This document shows positions 9,489 to 63,407 of a stretch of 64,000 nucleotides of DNA, in pieces. Made by a program: the position numbers and the translations under genes. Under the pieces are notes generated by a model. It saw only the letters and a program-made list of their open reading frames with translations, was not told where the DNA came from and did no database searches. Source of the DNA: a virus (Duplodnaviria; Heunggongvirae; Uroviricota; Caudoviricetes); the IMG/VR virus record IMGVR_UViG_2579778842_000003; one strand, written 5' to 3'. The stretch's first letter is position 1, and every line of letters starts with the position of its first letter.

Positions 9489-9929
9489 ATGGCCACATTA
9501 TCTGATACAATAAAACCGAATAAAACATATCTTGAGGCGGTGCTGCGTACGGCGTTGTTAGGAAAGACAGAAGACGAATACGTTGATTTCTTCCTGTCAG
9601 GGCTACGCGGGCGATTACTGAAAAATCCCCGCCTGTACCGCAGTTATGGCCCATACTGGCCGGAAATTAAAAAATTATTACTGGAGCGCGGTTATGGTAA
9701 TTTCGGTCGTCTCGTTGACCGTGACGTTCGCAAAATTTACCGTTATGACCGCCCGGCGCTGACACTCATAGCCGCGACGCTCTACAGCCAGGAGCGTTTT
9801 GATAATGGTCAGATATACTCAGCCTGGCATTTACTGCCAGTGCCTGAAGAAGTTGACGACCAGGACTATGAGTTTGAGTCTTACGATTTGGAAGTTGAAG
9901 CCTTGGCACAGGCTGGAGAGAAAACTTGA
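9489..9929 (+). CDS. ulx: Ulx-like protein, 146 aa
   Basis: ORF between darB and lxc, stop overlaps lxc start; synteny only. Confidence 0.45.
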   Translation: MATLSDTIKPNKTYLEAVLRTALLGKTEDEYVDFFLSGLRGRLLKNPRLYRSYGPYWPEIKKLLLERGYGNFGRLVDRDVRKIYRYDRPALTLIAATLYSQERFDNGQIYSAWHLLPVPEEVDDQDYEFESYDLEVEALAQAGEKT

Positions 9930-10174
9930 AAAAGCGATACTACACAGTAAAGCATGGGACGCTACGAGCATTACAAGAGTTTGCTGACAAGCATAACGTT
10001 GAGGTGCGCAGGGAAGGGGGAAGTAAAGCTCTGCGTATGTACCGTCCGGATGGGAAATGGCGTACGGTCGTCGATTTCAAAACTAACAGCGTTCCCCAGG
10101 GCGTCCGTGACCGGGCATTCGAAGAATGGGAGCAGATCATCATAGATAACGCATTGCTCCTGAATGCTGATTAA
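9926..10174 (+). CDS. lxc: Lxc/Bof C1 co-repressor, 82 aa
   Basis: 82-aa ORF at the expected position, length as recalled for P1 Bof; followed by strong terminator. Confidence 0.6.
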   Translation: MKKRYYTVKHGTLRALQEFADKHNVEVRREGGSKALRMYRPDGKWRTVVDFKTNSVPQGVRDRAFEEWEQIIIDNALLLNAD

Positions 10175-10210
10175 TTTATCGGGCAGTTTTATCTGCCCGA
10201 TAAATTTTTA
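10175..10210. terminator. Bidirectional intrinsic terminator between lxc and the convergent SIR2-like gene
   Basis: Perfect 12-bp inverted repeat TTTATCGGGCAG / CTGCCCGATAAA with 6-nt loop, followed by TTTTTA. Confidence 0.6.
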
Positions 10211-10220
10211 TCGACCACAA

Positions 10221-11528
10221 TTACACTATATTCTTAACTATAAGGTTGGCGTCCTTCAAGGTGCCTAATGTTTCAATGTGGTTTTTTATCATTAATCTAT
10301 TTGAGGCAATTATTGCAGGCCATCGTGTTTCCCAAGCTCTGTAAGCATACCAAGAAACTCCCCAATTCCTTTCTTTACTCATATGACCCATCGAGTATTC
10401 AACTGCGTCTAAATATGTTTTTTCATACTTAGTATTGCTAACCTCTATGATGCTTCCAAAATATATAAGCCATTTTGCCAACTGTTCATATTGCTCCCAC
10501 GCTCCGTTATTCCTTGTTAACTTTCTCTTTTTTTCTATTATCCTTTCGAAAAGAGAAACGACTTTATCATCATTCCAATCTAAACCTTCCGATATAATTG
10601 ATGATATAATTTGATAAAATGAATCCTCTAATTTAAGATATTCATTTTTATAAGTATAAGCCCCCGAAACAACTTTTCTGATATTTTCGCGCGCTCTTTC
10701 AATGATGTCTTTAATGAGAGACATCTTATAACTTAATCGACTAAAGAAACAATCTATTTCTGTATTGTCAATTACCCTTATACCAAAGCAATAGAAGTAA
10801 TAATCCTTCATATCTTGACTTACTTTGTTGCGAGATATCAAAAAGATATTAGAGCACAGGGCATTATTTTTCGAAAATTTTTTATAGTCATTTATAATTG
10901 CTTTAAGATTTGTGTCGCTTAAAGAATACCCTAATATCGCAACTGTATTTTCATGCAGCATCGTACTAAGTTTTCGTGAAAAATAAGTATCGGAATTTAT
11001 AAATCTGAAGTAATCATCTGAAGTGACAATCATATTTTTTGGCGAATCAATAGAGCCATGAACATGATATATTTTCACCTTGGATGGATACTTTGGAATT
11101 GGCAGGCCGGGCGTGATAGACTGTACACTTTCATCTCCAACCAAGCATTCAGCCAACTTGTCATAATTTGTTGTAATGACACGGAATGAGTTTTTTTGGA
11201 AAAAATCTTTTATATTTGATATGTCTTCTCCAAGTTGAATTGGAGATATGATGTCAACAATTTCATCATAAATCGACTTACCCTCAATATTGAGCTTCAA
11301 AGATAGTATTTGTGCGGCTTCTTCAAGACTCAGTGCTGGTGGTTTATCATCAGGGAATAACGTGTCTTCCAACTTTTTGGCATTGTGAACTTTGCTGCAA
11401 ACTTTTTTTAATAGTTCCTTCCACGTTGGAGCTTCACCGTTCGAGACTGCCTTTGAAAAGCCAGTCCCGGTAAATAGACAAAGCCTGCTTGTAGCGGCAG
11501 CGTATGCTAACTCAACATATTCGCTCAT
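10221..11528 (-). CDS. SIR2-family (SIR2_2/ThsA-type) NAD-binding domain protein with uncharacterised C-terminal region, 435 aa
   Basis: Motifs in order: LFTGTGFS (GAGxS-like), PTWKELL, ITTNYDKLAE, YHVHGS (catalytic HG), ILGYSLSD; visibly AT-rich versus flanks; GGAG SD 8 nt before ATG. Confidence 0.7.
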   Translation of the reverse strand: MSEYVELAYAAATSRLCLFTGTGFSKAVSNGEAPTWKELLKKVCSKVHNAKKLEDTLFPDDKPPALSLEEAAQILSLKLNIEGKSIYDEIVDIISPIQLGEDISNIKDFFQKNSFRVITTNYDKLAECLVGDESVQSITPGLPIPKYPSKVKIYHVHGSIDSPKNMIVTSDDYFRFINSDTYFSRKLSTMLHENTVAILGYSLSDTNLKAIINDYKKFSKNNALCSNIFLISRNKVSQDMKDYYFYCFGIRVIDNTEIDCFFSRLSYKMSLIKDIIERARENIRKVVSGAYTYKNEYLKLEDSFYQIISSIISEGLDWNDDKVVSLFERIIEKKRKLTRNNGAWEQYEQLAKWLIYFGSIIEVSNTKYEKTYLDAVEYSMGHMSKERNWGVSWYAYRAWETRWPAIIASNRLMIKNHIETLGTLKDANLIVKNIV

Positions 11529-11584
11529 TACTTACTCCATTTACTTATAGTTCTATGGAGAAGTATACCCTAATGCATTGACGT

Positions 11585-12253
11585 TTATAGATAATTTCCT
11601 TTTCCAGTTAACTCCCCTTTAGGCACCCGTTTTTGTGCCAGTGTTTGGGTTCCGCGAATTATGTTAATCAGAGGGCTTAGTAACGATGATTCCTGGCGGG
11701 CATCAACTTCTCCTGCCATTGCCCTAATGTAGTCGGCGCTTGCAACGTTGTTATATTCCGTTGCGAAGCAGCATAACAACGTCAGAACGTGCTCTGTCGT
11801 TATTTCGCTCCAGTTGATGTTGAAAAATTCATCGCCTTTTTTGTCATGTTCGGAATCGAAGATGCTTTGGTGAAGGATGTATTTGCCGGATTCCTTGCGC
11901 GGTAACTTGATCGCTTTCTGGCGTTCCAATTCCTTGTAAATCTGCATCGCTTCAATCAGTACCGGTCTGCCGTTCATGAAGGGATCACGCAACCTTACAC
12001 GCTGGCCAACTCGACCGGTAATAAAGCTGTTTTCCTCTTCCACCAGCACGATAAAACCCTTTTCCTCTTTTTCTCGCAATTCGCGCAGCAGCTGGAGTTC
12101 CATATCGCGGCGGCGTTCAGGGTAGCTGGTCCGCTCAGCCATTATCAGCTCATTGTTGATCCATGCGGCAGTCATTGACGCCGGTTTGCCGACGCTCATC
12201 GAAACAACGCATATTTTCTTATCCATAGCGCCCCTACAAAAAAGAAAAGCCAC
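11585..12253 (-). CDS. Mat-like protein (position of P1 mat), 222 aa; true start may be internal Met
   Basis: ORF between ref and the cargo slot; synteny only. Confidence 0.35.
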   Translation of the reverse strand: MAFLFCRGAMDKKICVVSMSVGKPASMTAAWINNELIMAERTSYPERRRDMELQLLRELREKEEKGFIVLVEEENSFITGRVGQRVRLRDPFMNGRPVLIEAMQIYKELERQKAIKLPRKESGKYILHQSIFDSEHDKKGDEFFNINWSEITTEHVLTLLCCFATEYNNVASADYIRAMAGEVDARQESSLLSPLINIIRGTQTLAQKRVPKGELTGKGNYL

Positions 12254-12414
12254 CAGCGGCGGCTTAGCAATACAACTGAAGGTAGCGCCCGGTACTCAGA
12301 CTGTGCCGTCCATGGAATATTTGAAAAGGGATCCATCCGTACCGGGCGTGTGATGATTCTGACTGAAGTCACTTGTCAGTTGTCAATCATTTATCATTAA
12401 AAATAATATATTTA

Positions 12415-29151: not shown

Positions 29152-29347
29152 GCTTCACCTCGATAGGCTTGATGGTGTCTAACAGCAGTCGGCGGCGCGT
29201 ATTTTCTGCAAAATGGCGGCGCCCAGTTTCTTTGTGGTAAAACTCGTTTTTGCCGACGACCCACATCCGCTCTGTTTGGTGCAGTTTTTTTACCTTCGGG
29301 CCATCTTTGGTGATCACGGTACCGGTATGGGTTTTTACGATTGTCAT
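29144..29347 (-). CDS. Hypothetical protein, 67 aa
   Basis: ATGA overlap with upstream PP-loop gene. Confidence 0.3.
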   Translation of the reverse strand: MTIVKTHTGTVITKDGPKVKKLHQTERMWVVGKNEFYHKETGRRHFAENTRRRLLLDTIKPIEVKHV

Positions 29348-30222
29348 TCCACTACCTCTTCGAATTTCAACTCCAATTGGTCACCCCAGATTTCACATGA
29401 TTCGGAACACGAACCAGTATCAAACCGCTTGGCCAGCACCATCGCCTGATACAAATTTCTGTAGTCACTGTCGGCATACATTCTGGCAATCCCGTCAAGC
29501 GTCAGGTGGCCACGGTACATAACGTCTTTACCTGTTCTGCGCTGACCATCCCTGACGTGTTTGCCTGTAACCAGTTCATTAAAAACCCGCATCAGACCTG
29601 GTTCGTCTTTACATGCAAGCCCCAGCTTTTGCGTTGACTTTTTGATGCAAAAAACACAGTTCCCGAGGTGCTCCGGGATTTGCAAATCAAAAGGTTGTTT
29701 TCGCCACCACCGGATAACATCCGACTTATCAAAATCTGACAGTTCGGCAAGATACCGGACGCCCGGTTTCGGTTTCAGCCTACGGGGTTCGTCCGCACGA
29801 ATACCGAGCCATGTGATGTAATTCCCTCGCCCAAAATGATCATCGCAATATTTCGTGAAAGGGGTGAGTTTTAGCCTGTCGGTACAGAACGCGCCGCCGA
29901 TGTATGGCGTACCGTACTTTTTAACCATGTCCATAAACGGTTTAAGCACCGGCATTCGCGTCTGAATATCCTTTGGTTCCCATTCCGTATAACCATTTGG
30001 CTGCCCAAGTTCTGGATTTATATCGACCTGCAACACCGTTAGCGGTACGTTCCAGAACTTCACAACCTCACGAATAAAGCGATACGTCAGAGGATGTTCA
30101 CAGCCGGTATCCATAAAAATGAAATGGACGCTAGCGCCAGCTTTTCGCTGTGCTTCCATCAGATGAACGAGATAAGCCGATGTTCGTCCACCTGAAAAGC
30201 TGACAACTTGATGCATACTCAC
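29344..30222 (-). CDS. PP-loop ATPase, PAPS reductase-like family, 292 aa
   Basis: N-terminal VSFSGGRTS PP-loop motif. Confidence 0.55.
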   Translation of the reverse strand: MSMHQVVSFSGGRTSAYLVHLMEAQRKAGASVHFIFMDTGCEHPLTYRFIREVVKFWNVPLTVLQVDINPELGQPNGYTEWEPKDIQTRMPVLKPFMDMVKKYGTPYIGGAFCTDRLKLTPFTKYCDDHFGRGNYITWLGIRADEPRRLKPKPGVRYLAELSDFDKSDVIRWWRKQPFDLQIPEHLGNCVFCIKKSTQKLGLACKDEPGLMRVFNELVTGKHVRDGQRRTGKDVMYRGHLTLDGIARMYADSDYRNLYQAMVLAKRFDTGSCSESCEIWGDQLELKFEEVVE

Positions 30223-33291: not shown

Positions 33292-33993
33292 TTATTCTGA
33301 TTCTTGCTCAAAAAACGCGCTAATGAGAGGAAGCCAATCCTCTGACACTTCACGCGGTCGCGGTTTGCCATGGAAGAAGATTATTCGGCAGTCTTTTGGT
33401 AATGCCCCATTCCCCCTGGAGTAGCGCGCACTTGCATATTTCGAACCAGGTTCCACAACATCGGCCTTGTAACTTACAAACCATCCCGGATACAGATCCT
33501 GAAATGCTGGTGTATCATCGCCCATAACCTTCCGTAAGAACCCCTGATCACCCCAGCATTCAGTAGTAACACAATGAGCAATCCAACCTTCCGGATCTTG
33601 CCAGAATGCACTCCAGATATGCGCTTTTACACTATTTGGTATCCACAGGGCACCGCTGCCACGATATTGTGGATGGTAAAAATCCCTAAGCATGGTGAAG
33701 CTGGTTGGTGGATCCTCAAGGATTGGGCGTATATCACCGGCAATAACCGTGTCCAAATCCAGATAAAACAGATCATCGGTTATATCCGGTCGGAACAACT
33801 CGATTTTCGCCCACCAGCCACGGCACTTTTGCCACTGGTTGATCAATGGGATAACTTTGACGCCAGGTACATGTAAACGCTTCAGGTCTGTCAGGCAAAT
33901 AATTTCATAGCCTTTTGGCAGTTGATTAACCAGCCACTGCACATCGGAAGCGTTATAGTCGCCACCAGAGCGAAGAACTAAAGCAATCTTCAT
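33292..33993 (-). CDS. Putative nucleotide-sugar transferase-like protein with DxD motif, 233 aa
   Basis: [14 protein letters not shown]-terminus and FYLDLDTV DxD-like motif; assignment tentative. Confidence 0.35.
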
Positions 33994-34682
33994 GCTGCAC
34001 CATCACCTTTCACTTTCATCAATGTCAGGTTTCCGCAAAATACGGCACCAGTGTCGATATAATGCTGATTCCAGAATGTCTTCGGGCTTTTCACCGGAGT
34101 GTGACCAAAGATAAAACGATCTGCGCCCGAAATTTCGCCACCAATATCATCCATCGAATCACTGATACGCTCGCGCGCCCAGACAACGTTGAAAAGCGGC
34201 ACCTCCTTACCGAATTGATATTCATTATCCGGATAGTCGGCATGGGCTATAACGATAGTTTCTTGCCCGGTGTTCAACTCAATGATATAGGGCAGTCGTC
34301 TTACCAACTCCACCAGCGCCCTGGCTAATATTTCCTGATCAGTGTCCAGCATGAAGAACCATTGTCCGCCATTCATTAGCCAGTTATTCACGTTGCCATC
34401 AGGACTTAACGCATCGAGCATCAACCGCTCATGGTTCCCCATTACTGCCCTGAACCAGGGCATCTGCAATAGTTCCAGACATTCGACATTTTCAGTACCG
34501 CGATCGATAAGGTCGCCGACCGATATCAGTAAATCCTGCGCCGGGTCAAAATCCACACGATGGAGTTCGGACATCAGTCTGGTGTAGCAACCATGCAGAT
34601 CACCAACAACCCAGATATTCCTGTATTTGGTACCGTCGATACGGTGATAAATTGTTGGTGCCATCATGTATTCTTCAGCCAT
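33990..34682 (-). CDS. ppp: Ser/Thr protein phosphatase (lambda PPase-like calcineurin fold), 230 aa
   Basis: Metallophosphatase motifs GDLHG, GDLIDRG, GNHE. Confidence 0.8.
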
Positions 34683-44433: not shown

Positions 44434-44509
44434 TGGTGGCCCCTACCGGACTTGAACCGGTGACCGTGCGATTATGAGTCGCCAGCTCTAACCACTGAGC
44501 TAAAGGGCC
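44434..44509 (-). tRNA. trnI: tRNA with CAU anticodon, Ile2-like (lysidine type)
   Basis: 76-nt cloverleaf ending CCA, anticodon loop CTCATAA; resembles E. coli ileX as recalled. Confidence 0.7.
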
Positions 44510-46313: not shown

Positions 46314-46389
46314 TGGTGCCGATTAACGGACTCGAACCGCTGACATCCTGCTTACAAGGCAGGCGCTCTACCAACTGAGCTAAACCGGC
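46314..46389 (-). tRNA. trnT: tRNA-Thr (UGU)
   Basis: 76-nt cloverleaf with CCA, anticodon loop CTTGTAA, T-loop TTCGAGT. Confidence 0.8.
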
Positions 46390-46391
46390 AT

Positions 46392-46467
46392 TGGCGATGG
46401 TGGATGGATTTGAACCATCGACCCGTTGATTAACAGTCAACCGCTCTAACCGCTGAGCTACACCATC
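46392..46467 (-). tRNA. trnA: tRNA-Asn (GUU)
   Basis: 76-nt cloverleaf with CCA, anticodon loop CTGTTAA, T-loop TTCAAAT. Confidence 0.8.
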
Positions 46468-62414: not shown

Positions 62415-63407
62415 ATGTTACGTATCAATGATATGAGCAATATTATTGTAGGTATTTACAGCAAAAAAAATGAAGAAAAATCATTTGAGTATATGTACTC
62501 TTATCTGACAAGGAAAACAGCTTATTTAACACGTGAGTTTATTCGTGATGGTAATCAGGATAAAGAATTATTAAAAAATACCTATATAGAAGCATTGTCT
62601 TGGCTTTTTGCAATCTGTGATAAACTTGAAATACAACCACAGGAAGCATTTTATAAAAAATTTCCTAGTTGCTGTCCTTATTGCTTAGGGGCGCCTTGTT
62701 CCTGTTCTCAAACACACAGAAAGCCAGAGAAAATAAGAAGCGCAAAAGGAATTAAAGATGAGCTTTTCAATAAATATAACGCTATTAAACCTATGCAATT
62801 TCCGCCTTATGCGCCACGAATGATTAATGACATCTATCCGTCGAATAGAACCATTTGGTCTACTTTTGGTGGGTTTTATCATTCATCCAGGTTATTCGAA
62901 GAGTTGGGTGAGTTGCAAGAGGCTTATGCTAAATCAATTGAAGATAAAAATTACAACAAAGAAAATCTTCATGAAGAGTGTGCTGATATATATGCTTGGT
63001 TGTTTTCTTTATGGGGGATTATTTTTAAAGATGATGATCTTGGCGAGGCGTTTGAAAGTTATTATCTAAATGGTTGTCCTGTCTGCAATAAAAGAGAATG
63101 TGTTTGTGTCAGTTATTCAGGGAAGATTAGTAAAACTGATGAGAAAAGAGCATCATTGGAAAAACTTAAACAAGAGTTAGAACTTCTCTTGAAGGATGAG
63201 ACGACAGGTGAGTTTAAGGAGAATTTAGAGTCTGCTATATCTGCAATTAAAGATGCGATAGACTCAGGAAAAGATGCAGATAGCAGAAGAACTTTATCGG
63301 AAGTCGAAAGTGTTCTTGACTCAATCGAAAAAAATTCAGCCAAGATGTCTAGTGTGGCAAGTAACGCCCTTAATGTTTTTAATGTAATCAGTAAGTTATT
63401 CCAATAA
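62415..63407 (+). CDS. AT-rich cargo protein with MazG-like NTP-pyrophosphohydrolase motifs and two Cys clusters, about 330 aa
   Basis: FEELGELQEAY and HEECADIYAWLFSL resemble the paired MazG/HisE helices; CCPYCLGAPCSC and CPVCNKRECVC; AAGAGGA SD before ATG at 62415; strongly AT-rich. Confidence 0.5.
   Translation: MLRINDMSNIIVGIYSKKNEEKSFEYMYSYLTRKTAYLTREFIRDGNQDKELLKNTYIEALSWLFAICDKLEIQPQEAFYKKFPSCCPYCLGAPCSCSQTHRKPEKIRSAKGIKDELFNKYNAIKPMQFPPYAPRMINDIYPSNRTIWSTFGGFYHSSRLFEELGELQEAYAKSIEDKNYNKENLHEECADIYAWLFSLWGIIFKDDDLGEAFESYYLNGCPVCNKRECVCVSYSGKISKTDEKRASLEKLKQELELLLKDETTGEFKENLESAISAIKDAIDSGKDADSRRTLSEVESVLDSIEKNSAKMSSVASNALNVFNVISKLFQ

Follow-up and report, generated by a model that had tools for sequence, protein, structure and literature searches.

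What does a lone SIR2-family gene do between lxc and mat of a P1-like phage-plasmid, in the interval where P1 itself holds restriction genes? The question arises from IMG/VR record IMGVR_UViG_2579778842_000003 (Caudoviricetes), a stretch of 64,000 nucleotides (nt) that is referred to here, at its full length, as the window. The window is a P1-like (IncY) phage-plasmid: darB, ulx and lxc run on the plus strand, and the SIR2 gene, mat, ref, c8 and cre run on the minus strand. Positions 10100-11700 are 100% identical to the E. coli plasmid NZ_CP091040.1. By analogy with DSR-type systems, the gene probably encodes a single-protein abortive-infection enzyme that would hydrolyze nicotinamide adenine dinucleotide (NAD+; an NADase), carried as swappable cargo in the lxc-mat hotspot. 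Several observations support this reading: the protein has a defence-type SIR2 domain with intact catalytic residues, the slot holds defence genes, homologues lie in defence islands and at prophage ends, the gene stands alone, and it is polymorphic among P1-like elements.

An earlier reading of the bare sequence (the original prediction) had proposed a 435-residue open reading frame (ORF) at 10221..11528, with five SIR2 motifs in order and an AT-rich composition between backbone-like flanks. All of this was borne out, and the strand, which it had left unstated, is minus. The motifs LFTGTGFS, PTWKELL, ITTNYDKLAE, YHVHGS and ILGYSLSD stand at residues 18, 34, 118, 154 and 198. The GC content of the gene is 34.8%, compared with 47.8% for the whole window, and a sliding profile forms a trough of 29-38% over the gene between flanks of about 50%; the low value indicates horizontal acquisition. 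Translation starts at an ATG with a GGAG Shine-Dalgarno sequence 8 nt on its 5′ side, and this start codon is further supported because the N-terminus (MSEY/MSEI) is conserved across the family. The gene and its parts are as follows (allele classes are described below).

10221..11528 (stop codon 10221-10223), minus strand: SIR2-family ORF, allele class A (ORF list; SIR2_2 and PHROG 7567 matches; homologues).
10764..11528, minus strand: SIR2_2/SIRim domain, residues 1-255, predicted NADase (AlphaFold2 model, Foldseek, PDB profile search).
11166..11168, minus strand: codon of Asn121 (TTNYD), predicted catalytic (invariant in the homologue alignment; aligns with TTNYD of ThsA and DSR2).
11058..11060, minus strand: codon of His157 (HVHGS), predicted catalytic (invariant; aligned to the histidine in (K/M)HGD of ThsA and DSR2).
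10224..10763, minus strand: C-terminal domain (CTD), residues 256-435, predicted all-alpha, proposed sensor or regulatory domain.

The N-terminal part of the protein resembles enzymes of bacterial immunity. A Pfam search, which had been suggested as a check, gave a significant match to SIR2_2 (PF13289) over residues 117-252 (E=1.1e-23, 84.3 bits against a cutoff of 24.5), and a profile built from 56 homologues matched PDB entries for ThsA, DSR2 and KomC. In the AlphaFold2 model of the 435-residue protein (predicted local distance difference test score 83.5), residues 1-255 form a Rossmann-type alternation of strands and helices. With Foldseek, the best superposition is on the SIR2 domain of DSR2 (template modelling score, TM, about 0.7 on chains of 271-277 residues), and ThsA and KomC are also found. 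Gly21 and Gly23 of the glycine-rich NAD loop, Asn121 and His157 are invariant in the 56 homologues, and Asn121 and His157 align with the corresponding ThsA and DSR2 motifs in the PDB profile search; His157 would be the equivalent of DSR2 H171, judging from PDB entries titled “DSR2 (H171A)”. The nearest relatives in sequence and structure (ThsA, DSR2, KomC, LmuA and PDC-S25) are all defence NADases, and the domain is predicted to be an NAD+ hydrolase. The immune SIRim subfamily is set apart from deacylase sirtuins by the lack of a CxxC zinc-binding tetrad (10.1101/2024.09.18.613514). The 435-residue sequence has no CxxC pair, which places it in the SIRim branch rather than among the deacylase sirtuins. 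Because of this placement, the RefSeq product name, “SIR2 family NAD-dependent protein deacylase”, is probably wrong.

The remaining 180 residues are modelled as an all-alpha domain with an alpha-solenoid or HEAT-like fold. The original prediction had recognized no motif in roughly the last 190 residues, and the C-terminal half is indeed unannotated: the CTD has no relative in Pfam, PADLOC or the PDB. When a CTD profile was run as a hidden Markov model search against 1.84 billion cluster representatives, 98 proteins were returned. The full-length matches are all 406-480 residues long with the CTD in their C-terminal half, and the ten distant matches that were scanned (346-480 residues) all carry an N-terminal SIR2_2 domain. 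Short matches with the appearance of standalone CTDs turned out to be 5′-truncated fragments that begin within the SIR2 domain or at the end of a contig, and the idea of a shuffled module was rejected, the profile search finding the CTD exclusively behind SIR2. The CTD is thus a private domain of this SIR2 family. It is less conserved than its partner, with a family-wide identity of 45% versus 62% for the SIR2 domain, and by analogy with DSR2 it may act as a protein sensor.

The family is widespread and its members stand alone. There are 685 homologues of about 434 residues that are 52-62% identical over their full length, in Enterobacterales, Vibrio, Halomonas, Pseudoalteromonas, Pseudomonas, Marinobacter, Paracidovorax/Delftia and Rhizobium. 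In scans of Pfam, NCBIfam, PADLOC and PHROG, the sole full-length match is PHROG 7567 (function unknown), which aligns residues 1-434 with all 434 profile positions (1-434; E=5.5e-247), and the annotation “SIR2 family protein” appears in about 120 PLSDB plasmids. The contexts are varied: homologues lie at the end of lambdoid prophages of E. coli, beside the integrase, occur in several other prophage backgrounds, lie in a Halomonas island with HNH, HsdR_N-like and DUF87 genes, follow an HD/HD_assoc gene in Pantoea and sit near a GmrSD_N gene in V. cholerae. Clustering the flanking ORFs of 36 loci gave 20 distinct context groups, and no gene family recurs adjacent to the SIR2 gene across them; the sole family that recurs at all, a YfdR-like HD gene of prophages, lies about 2.5 kb away. 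A conserved partner was also sought among the small ORFs flanking the Halomonas and Pseudoalteromonas homologues, which proved mutually unrelated. With no recurrent neighbour in 20 independent contexts, the gene is taken to be a single-gene unit, as had been proposed, and the ORF list likewise agrees that no TIR, HerA, Argonaute or STAND gene lies beside it in the window.

Two of these neighbourhoods hold further genes of note. In Pantoea (locus L001, 4628-5857) the homologue lies directly 3′ of the HD plus HD_assoc (dGTPase-like) gene, and in Halomonas (locus L007, 8700-11667) a 401-residue gene and a DUF87/HerA-like gene form a pair three genes downstream of the SIR2 homologue. The Pantoea HD gene and the Halomonas pair may be defence systems in their own right that cluster with the SIR2 gene.

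The gene occupies a slot whose edges can be set by comparison with relatives. BLAST homology to RCS47, in which the slot is empty, stops at 10174 and restarts at 11589, and homology to SJ46 stops at 10174 and restarts at 11585. These break points coincide with the lxc stop codon and, within about 4 nt, with the mat stop codon. The variable cassette thus spans 10175..11584, the same interval that the original prediction had marked out. The cassette consists of a hairpin with a T-run directly after lxc, the ORF and a 56-nt leader.

11529..11584, minus strand: 56-nt leader, from the mat stop codon to the SIR2 ATG (sequence, BLAST across loci, identity profile).
10173..10209, no strand assigned: 14-bp GC-rich hairpin with a T-run behind it; lxc and the SIR2 gene converge on it.
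9926..10174, plus strand: lxc, left backbone boundary of the slot (ORF; 98.7% identical to RCS47 and SJ46 up to 10174).
11585..12226, minus strand: mat, right backbone boundary of the slot, 213-residue form (ORF; annotations of relatives).

What fills this slot differs from one element to the next. In P1 it holds the EcoP1I res and mod genes between mat and lxc, as the original prediction had stated; the IS1 element named along with them was not found there, the reference record having IS5 instead. The res and mod genes of P1 are read in the direction of lxc; the SIR2 gene points the other way, like mat, which it follows at a distance of 56 nt. In SJ46 a RelA/SpoT gene has the same orientation as the SIR2 gene; this is CapRel-SJ46, which matches PADLOC PDC-S33 and is an experimentally validated defence, an abortive system triggered by a phage protein (PMC9712102). 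The slot of JL22 encodes a PIN-domain protein and that of MH422554 a DUF2971 protein, and in RCS47 the slot is empty, with 39 nt between its edges. Two phages (Ro157c2YLVW and the record “P1 isolate del res del mod”) carry an AraC-type helix-turn-helix gene paired with a gene for an EAL-domain protein. This pair is divergently transcribed (1114-2688 in locus L019, 2314-3939 in L016), and its EAL protein resembles cyclic di-GMP phosphodiesterases; it is not obviously related to defence. The lxc-mat slot is a true hotspot for cargo, in which defence genes are frequent without being the only kind. The proposal of a swap-in defence slot stands on EcoP1I in P1, CapRel-SJ46 in SJ46 and nothing at all in RCS47. 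As the source of both EcoP1I and CapRel-SJ46, the slot looks productive for mining further systems. The SIR2 gene itself was found neither in canonical P1, where its presence had been put up as a check, nor in any GenBank phage record searched.

Variation extends beyond the slot on both sides. In two P1-like contigs with allele C (L026, 2059-3581; L030, 2432-3954), the position of ref between c8 and mat is taken by a gene for a 352-residue protein with a KilAC/ANT antirepressor domain and by two small ORFs, which suggests a second variable slot directly beside the lxc-mat slot. In the P1-like contig L050 (6875-10181), which carries allele A (99% identical), ulx and darB are missing downstream and unrelated ORFs of 315, 213 and 185 residues are found; the backbone of this contig is rearranged on the lxc side of the slot.

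Within P1-like elements, the SIR2 family occurs in the lxc-mat slot as three allele classes in the same orientation. Class A is the allele of the window, and about 57 PLSDB plasmids match a class A query at a coverage of at least 80% (most of them class A, at least one of them class B). In amino acid sequence, class B is 84-86% identical to class A. Class C, present in 65 PLSDB plasmids, is about 58% identical in amino acid sequence and 42-78% in nucleotide sequence (in 60-nt windows), diverging from the ATG onward. Together the three classes account for roughly 122 of about 686 P1-like plasmids (about 18%). The leader behaves quite differently from the gene: it is 95-100% identical across classes A, B and C (compared as a 62-nt stretch that includes the last mat codons), and family members outside P1-like elements have unrelated upstream DNA. 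Because this conservation is so extreme, it suggests that the leader carries expression signals, serves as a recombination anchor, or both. Class B agrees exactly with class A through the leader and codons 1-100; over the rest of the gene, identity is 67-95% per 60-nt window, mostly 73-88%. The corresponding amino acid identities are 93.3% for the SIR2 domain and 76.7% for the CTD. Synonymous divergence (dS) is 0.33 in the SIR2 part versus 0.99 in the CTD, and the ratio of nonsynonymous to synonymous divergence (dN/dS) is 0.07 versus 0.18. Positive selection on the CTD was considered, and the ratio of 0.18 speaks against it. The threefold higher dS of the CTD points to a mosaic origin by recombination, with a breakpoint inside a gene that appears to be under purifying selection.

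Compared with named systems, the protein is closest in layout to DSR1 and DSR2. Like them, it is a single gene product in which a purely helical region of repeats follows an N-terminal SIR2 domain; that domain shares the catalytic Asn and His with theirs and superposes best on that of DSR2 (TM about 0.7). DSR1 and DSR2 are about 1000-1260 residues long, however, compared with 435 here, and the helical domains of DSR share with the 180-residue CTD neither a detectable similarity in sequence nor a specific one in fold. Membership in DSR1 or DSR2 was rejected: the NCBIfam models give 26.2 bits (Dsr1) and 22.6 bits (Dsr2) against cutoffs of 1400, over the SIR2 motifs alone. PDC-S25, an untested single-gene SIR2 candidate of PADLOC with profiles of 517-528 positions, ranks first in PADLOC both for the window protein and for all family members that were tested (E=1e-26 to 1e-28). 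The best alignment to its 517-position profile covers positions 127-289 for the window protein and, in relatives, about 26-326 at most, so that membership was rejected as well; its C-terminal 200 or so positions never align, and the CTD alone matches nothing in PADLOC. PDC-S25 is a sister family with a different C-terminal domain. ThsA has a homologous SIR2 domain (PDB 6lhx, E=2.9e-11; PADLOC ThsA, E=1.8e-17) and a similar size (about 476 residues), but the CTD here is modelled as an alpha-solenoid and not as a SLOG/STALD or Macro fold. The PADLOC ThsA alignments end at about position 227 of 478, and no ThsB or TIR gene is found here or in the other contexts, which argues against a Thoeris system.

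For SIR2-HerA (Nezha) and PD-T7-2, no HerA (DUF87) gene is adjacent in the slot of the window; the DUF87 gene in Halomonas is three genes away beside its own 401-residue partner and was not seen in other contexts. For Lamassu, the LmuA profile covers residues 13-241 and leaves the CTD without a match, and no SMC gene is adjacent. Short pAgo-SIR2 (SPARSA) was rejected because neither Pfam nor PADLOC gives an APAZ or pAgo match and no such gene is adjacent. AbiH, a lactococcal single-gene abortive-infection protein listed among proteins with the SIRim fold (10.1101/2024.09.18.613514), shares both its single-gene nature and its type of fold with the window protein but has another host range and another C-terminal region; it is absent from the Pfam and PADLOC matches at E<=1, assuming that both libraries include an AbiH model. 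CapRel-SJ46 sits in the same slot in the same orientation and likewise joins an effector to a C-terminal sensor in one polypeptide, yet it belongs to the RelA/SpoT toxSAS family, has a different effector chemistry and is preceded by an unrelated leader sequence. The view that no named system matches over the full length therefore held up, since DSR1/2 fall far below their cutoffs and ThsA, LmuA and PDC-S25 match the SIR2 part only; the PADLOC-DB version used dates from 2023, and a more recent name for the family is possible. The stronger claim of an undescribed system survives in part: no name or paper was found, but the family is known to databases (PHROG 7567, PLSDB and homologues in Proteobacteria) and it has the compact SIR2-plus-helical-sensor layout. 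The family is uncharacterised, with the known layout of a SIR2 NADase and a helical sensor, and is not a new category.

How might such a protein work? DSR2 senses the tail tube protein of a phage and CapRel-SJ46 senses a capsid protein. DSR2 structures have been solved with a bound phage tail tube protein (according to PDB entry titles), and because of these a DSR2-like action is presumed here. The SIRim NAD+ hydrolase would be held inactive in healthy lysogens, expressed constitutively at a low level from the conserved 56-nt leader, and the C-terminal alpha-solenoid would be the regulatory or sensor module. By analogy with DSR2, the CTD would bind a protein of a superinfecting phage, and this binding would release or assemble the NADase. 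NAD+ would then be depleted and the infection aborted, which would protect the clonal population and the resident P1-like element. Three elements of this scheme are inferred: that the protein degrades NAD+, that it acts against phages, and what kind of cue triggers it.

Several points weigh against an abortive-infection NADase of this kind. A consensus scan found no sigma-70 promoter upstream of the gene on the minus strand (by eye there are weak candidates only, TATACT and a TATAAA straddling the mat stop codon), and no terminator lies between mat and the SIR2 ORF. Without a consensus promoter of its own or a terminator after mat, expression in the lysogen could hinge on mat transcription, which is C1-repressed or late. 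The CTD, under purifying selection at a dN/dS of 0.18, is fairly conserved for a sensor, and its resemblance to HEAT repeats is generic. The helical domains of DSR2 are not among its best fold matches, so the analogy with DSR2 sensing rests on architecture and not on homology. The orientation of the two domains in the model is moderately confident (predicted TM score 0.66). Finally, searches by accession and for PDC-S25, P1-like elements with SIR2, and the hotspot found no publication on a family that joins a SIRim domain to this private CTD; a 2026 domain-centric screen in E. coli explicitly left out single-gene systems (PMC13069673).

The same observations can be set against other explanations. 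The gene could be one part of a distributed system, with no phage sensing of its own, and be triggered by a small molecule or by a partner whose gene lies at another place in the host or in the P1 backbone; activation of ThsA by ThsB and of SIR2 by HerA would be the precedents. Its SIR2 domain is closest to effectors of the ThsA, LmuA and KomC type, all of which depend on partners, and the CTD is unusually conserved and never shuffled; yet no neighbour recurs in the 20 contexts, which span Pantoea, Halomonas, Vibrio, Paracidovorax and Pseudoalteromonas chromosomes and several prophage types. The small ORFs that adjoin the homologues in Halomonas and Pseudoalteromonas are not related between the two genomes, and an all-alpha CTD is not the SLOG or Macro fold that binds nucleotides. 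Taken together, these points make a distributed system unlikely. The simple deacylase implied by the RefSeq name is more doubtful still, to the point of being very improbable: the protein matches PF13289 and not the classical sirtuin family, it lacks the zinc-binding tetrad that serves as the criterion (10.1101/2024.09.18.613514), its closest structures are defence NADases, and the gene lies in mobile-element hotspots.

The position of the gene invites a different explanation, in which it serves the phage-plasmid itself, either as an addiction or exclusion toxin or as a NAD-metabolizing function of the lytic cycle that is read through from the late promoter LPmat. The gene follows mat after 56 nt in the same direction, no terminator intervenes and no consensus promoter precedes the gene; upstream of mat, the Omat/Pmat/LPmat region of P1 is conserved (98% identical to P1), and the leader is conserved only within P1-like elements. 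Against this, members of the family are common in chromosomes and in unrelated prophages, outside P1 and preceded by DNA that is unrelated, and the other occupants of the slot are defence genes. The slot can also be empty, as in RCS47, and the gene is therefore dispensable for the P1 life cycle. A role of this kind is improbable, and a defence NADase carried as cargo remains the preferred reading.

If the protein is such an NADase, the three alleles might be explained further. It is conceivable, though we hold it rather doubtful, that the 435-residue protein is a minimal pattern-recognition NADase whose private alpha-solenoid binds a conserved phage protein, and that alleles A, B and C are a balanced polymorphism of recognition specificities. 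Homologous recombination between P1-like plasmids would swap them, with anchors on either side of the gene (leader/mat and lxc) and with crossovers inside the coding sequence, like that of the A/B mosaic near codon 100-120. If this were true, the family would be a naturally modular system for exchanging specificity, and three alleles behind one leader would amount to a natural experiment on the exchange of defence specificity at a phage hotspot.

To a specialist, a SIR2 gene in a phage hotspot is unsurprising; its compactness, private CTD, prevalence and three alleles are what make it a worthwhile target. If active, it would be among the smallest self-contained SIR2 sensor-effector defences, and a tractable model for how a short helical repeat, in a sensor domain found nowhere else, can gate an NADase. 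Roughly one-fifth of the sequenced P1-like phage-plasmids of E. coli, Salmonella and Klebsiella have a SIR2-family gene in the slot. Some P1-like phage-plasmids carry resistance genes, and the SIR2 gene could shape which phages, therapeutic ones included, infect such strains.

A few smaller features of the region were noted along the way. The hairpin at 10173-10209 has a predicted RNA folding energy of -23.3 kcal/mol (z=-6.6) and looks like a bidirectional terminator with a better T-tail for lxc. It is specific to the cassette of the window; RCS47, SJ46 and allele B have other hairpins at this place. An RNA element in the cassette was also considered, and Rfam gave a chance miRNA match only (E=0.98). 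On the other side of mat, a terminator-like hairpin, AAGCCGCCGCTGGTGGCTT, followed by a T-run, lies at 12247-12265 on the minus strand between the LPmat/Pmat region and the start of the 213-residue mat, and it could attenuate transcription into mat and the SIR2 gene. A 1-nt difference from P1 in a G-run a few bases 5′ of the mat ATG (about 12230-12240) probably explains why Mat is annotated with 250 residues in P1 and with 213 in most relatives. Farther away, the accessory genes of NZ_CP091040.1 include one annotated as a MazG-like family protein and one as a PAPS-reductase-family protein (594-1586 and 33785-34657 in locus L022), which by extrapolation would lie at about 62415-63407 and 29300-30200 of the window. 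The window also has three tRNA genes (Met-CAT, Thr-TGT and Asn-GTT) on the minus strand at 44434-44509 and 46314-46467, a set that presumably resembles that of P1.

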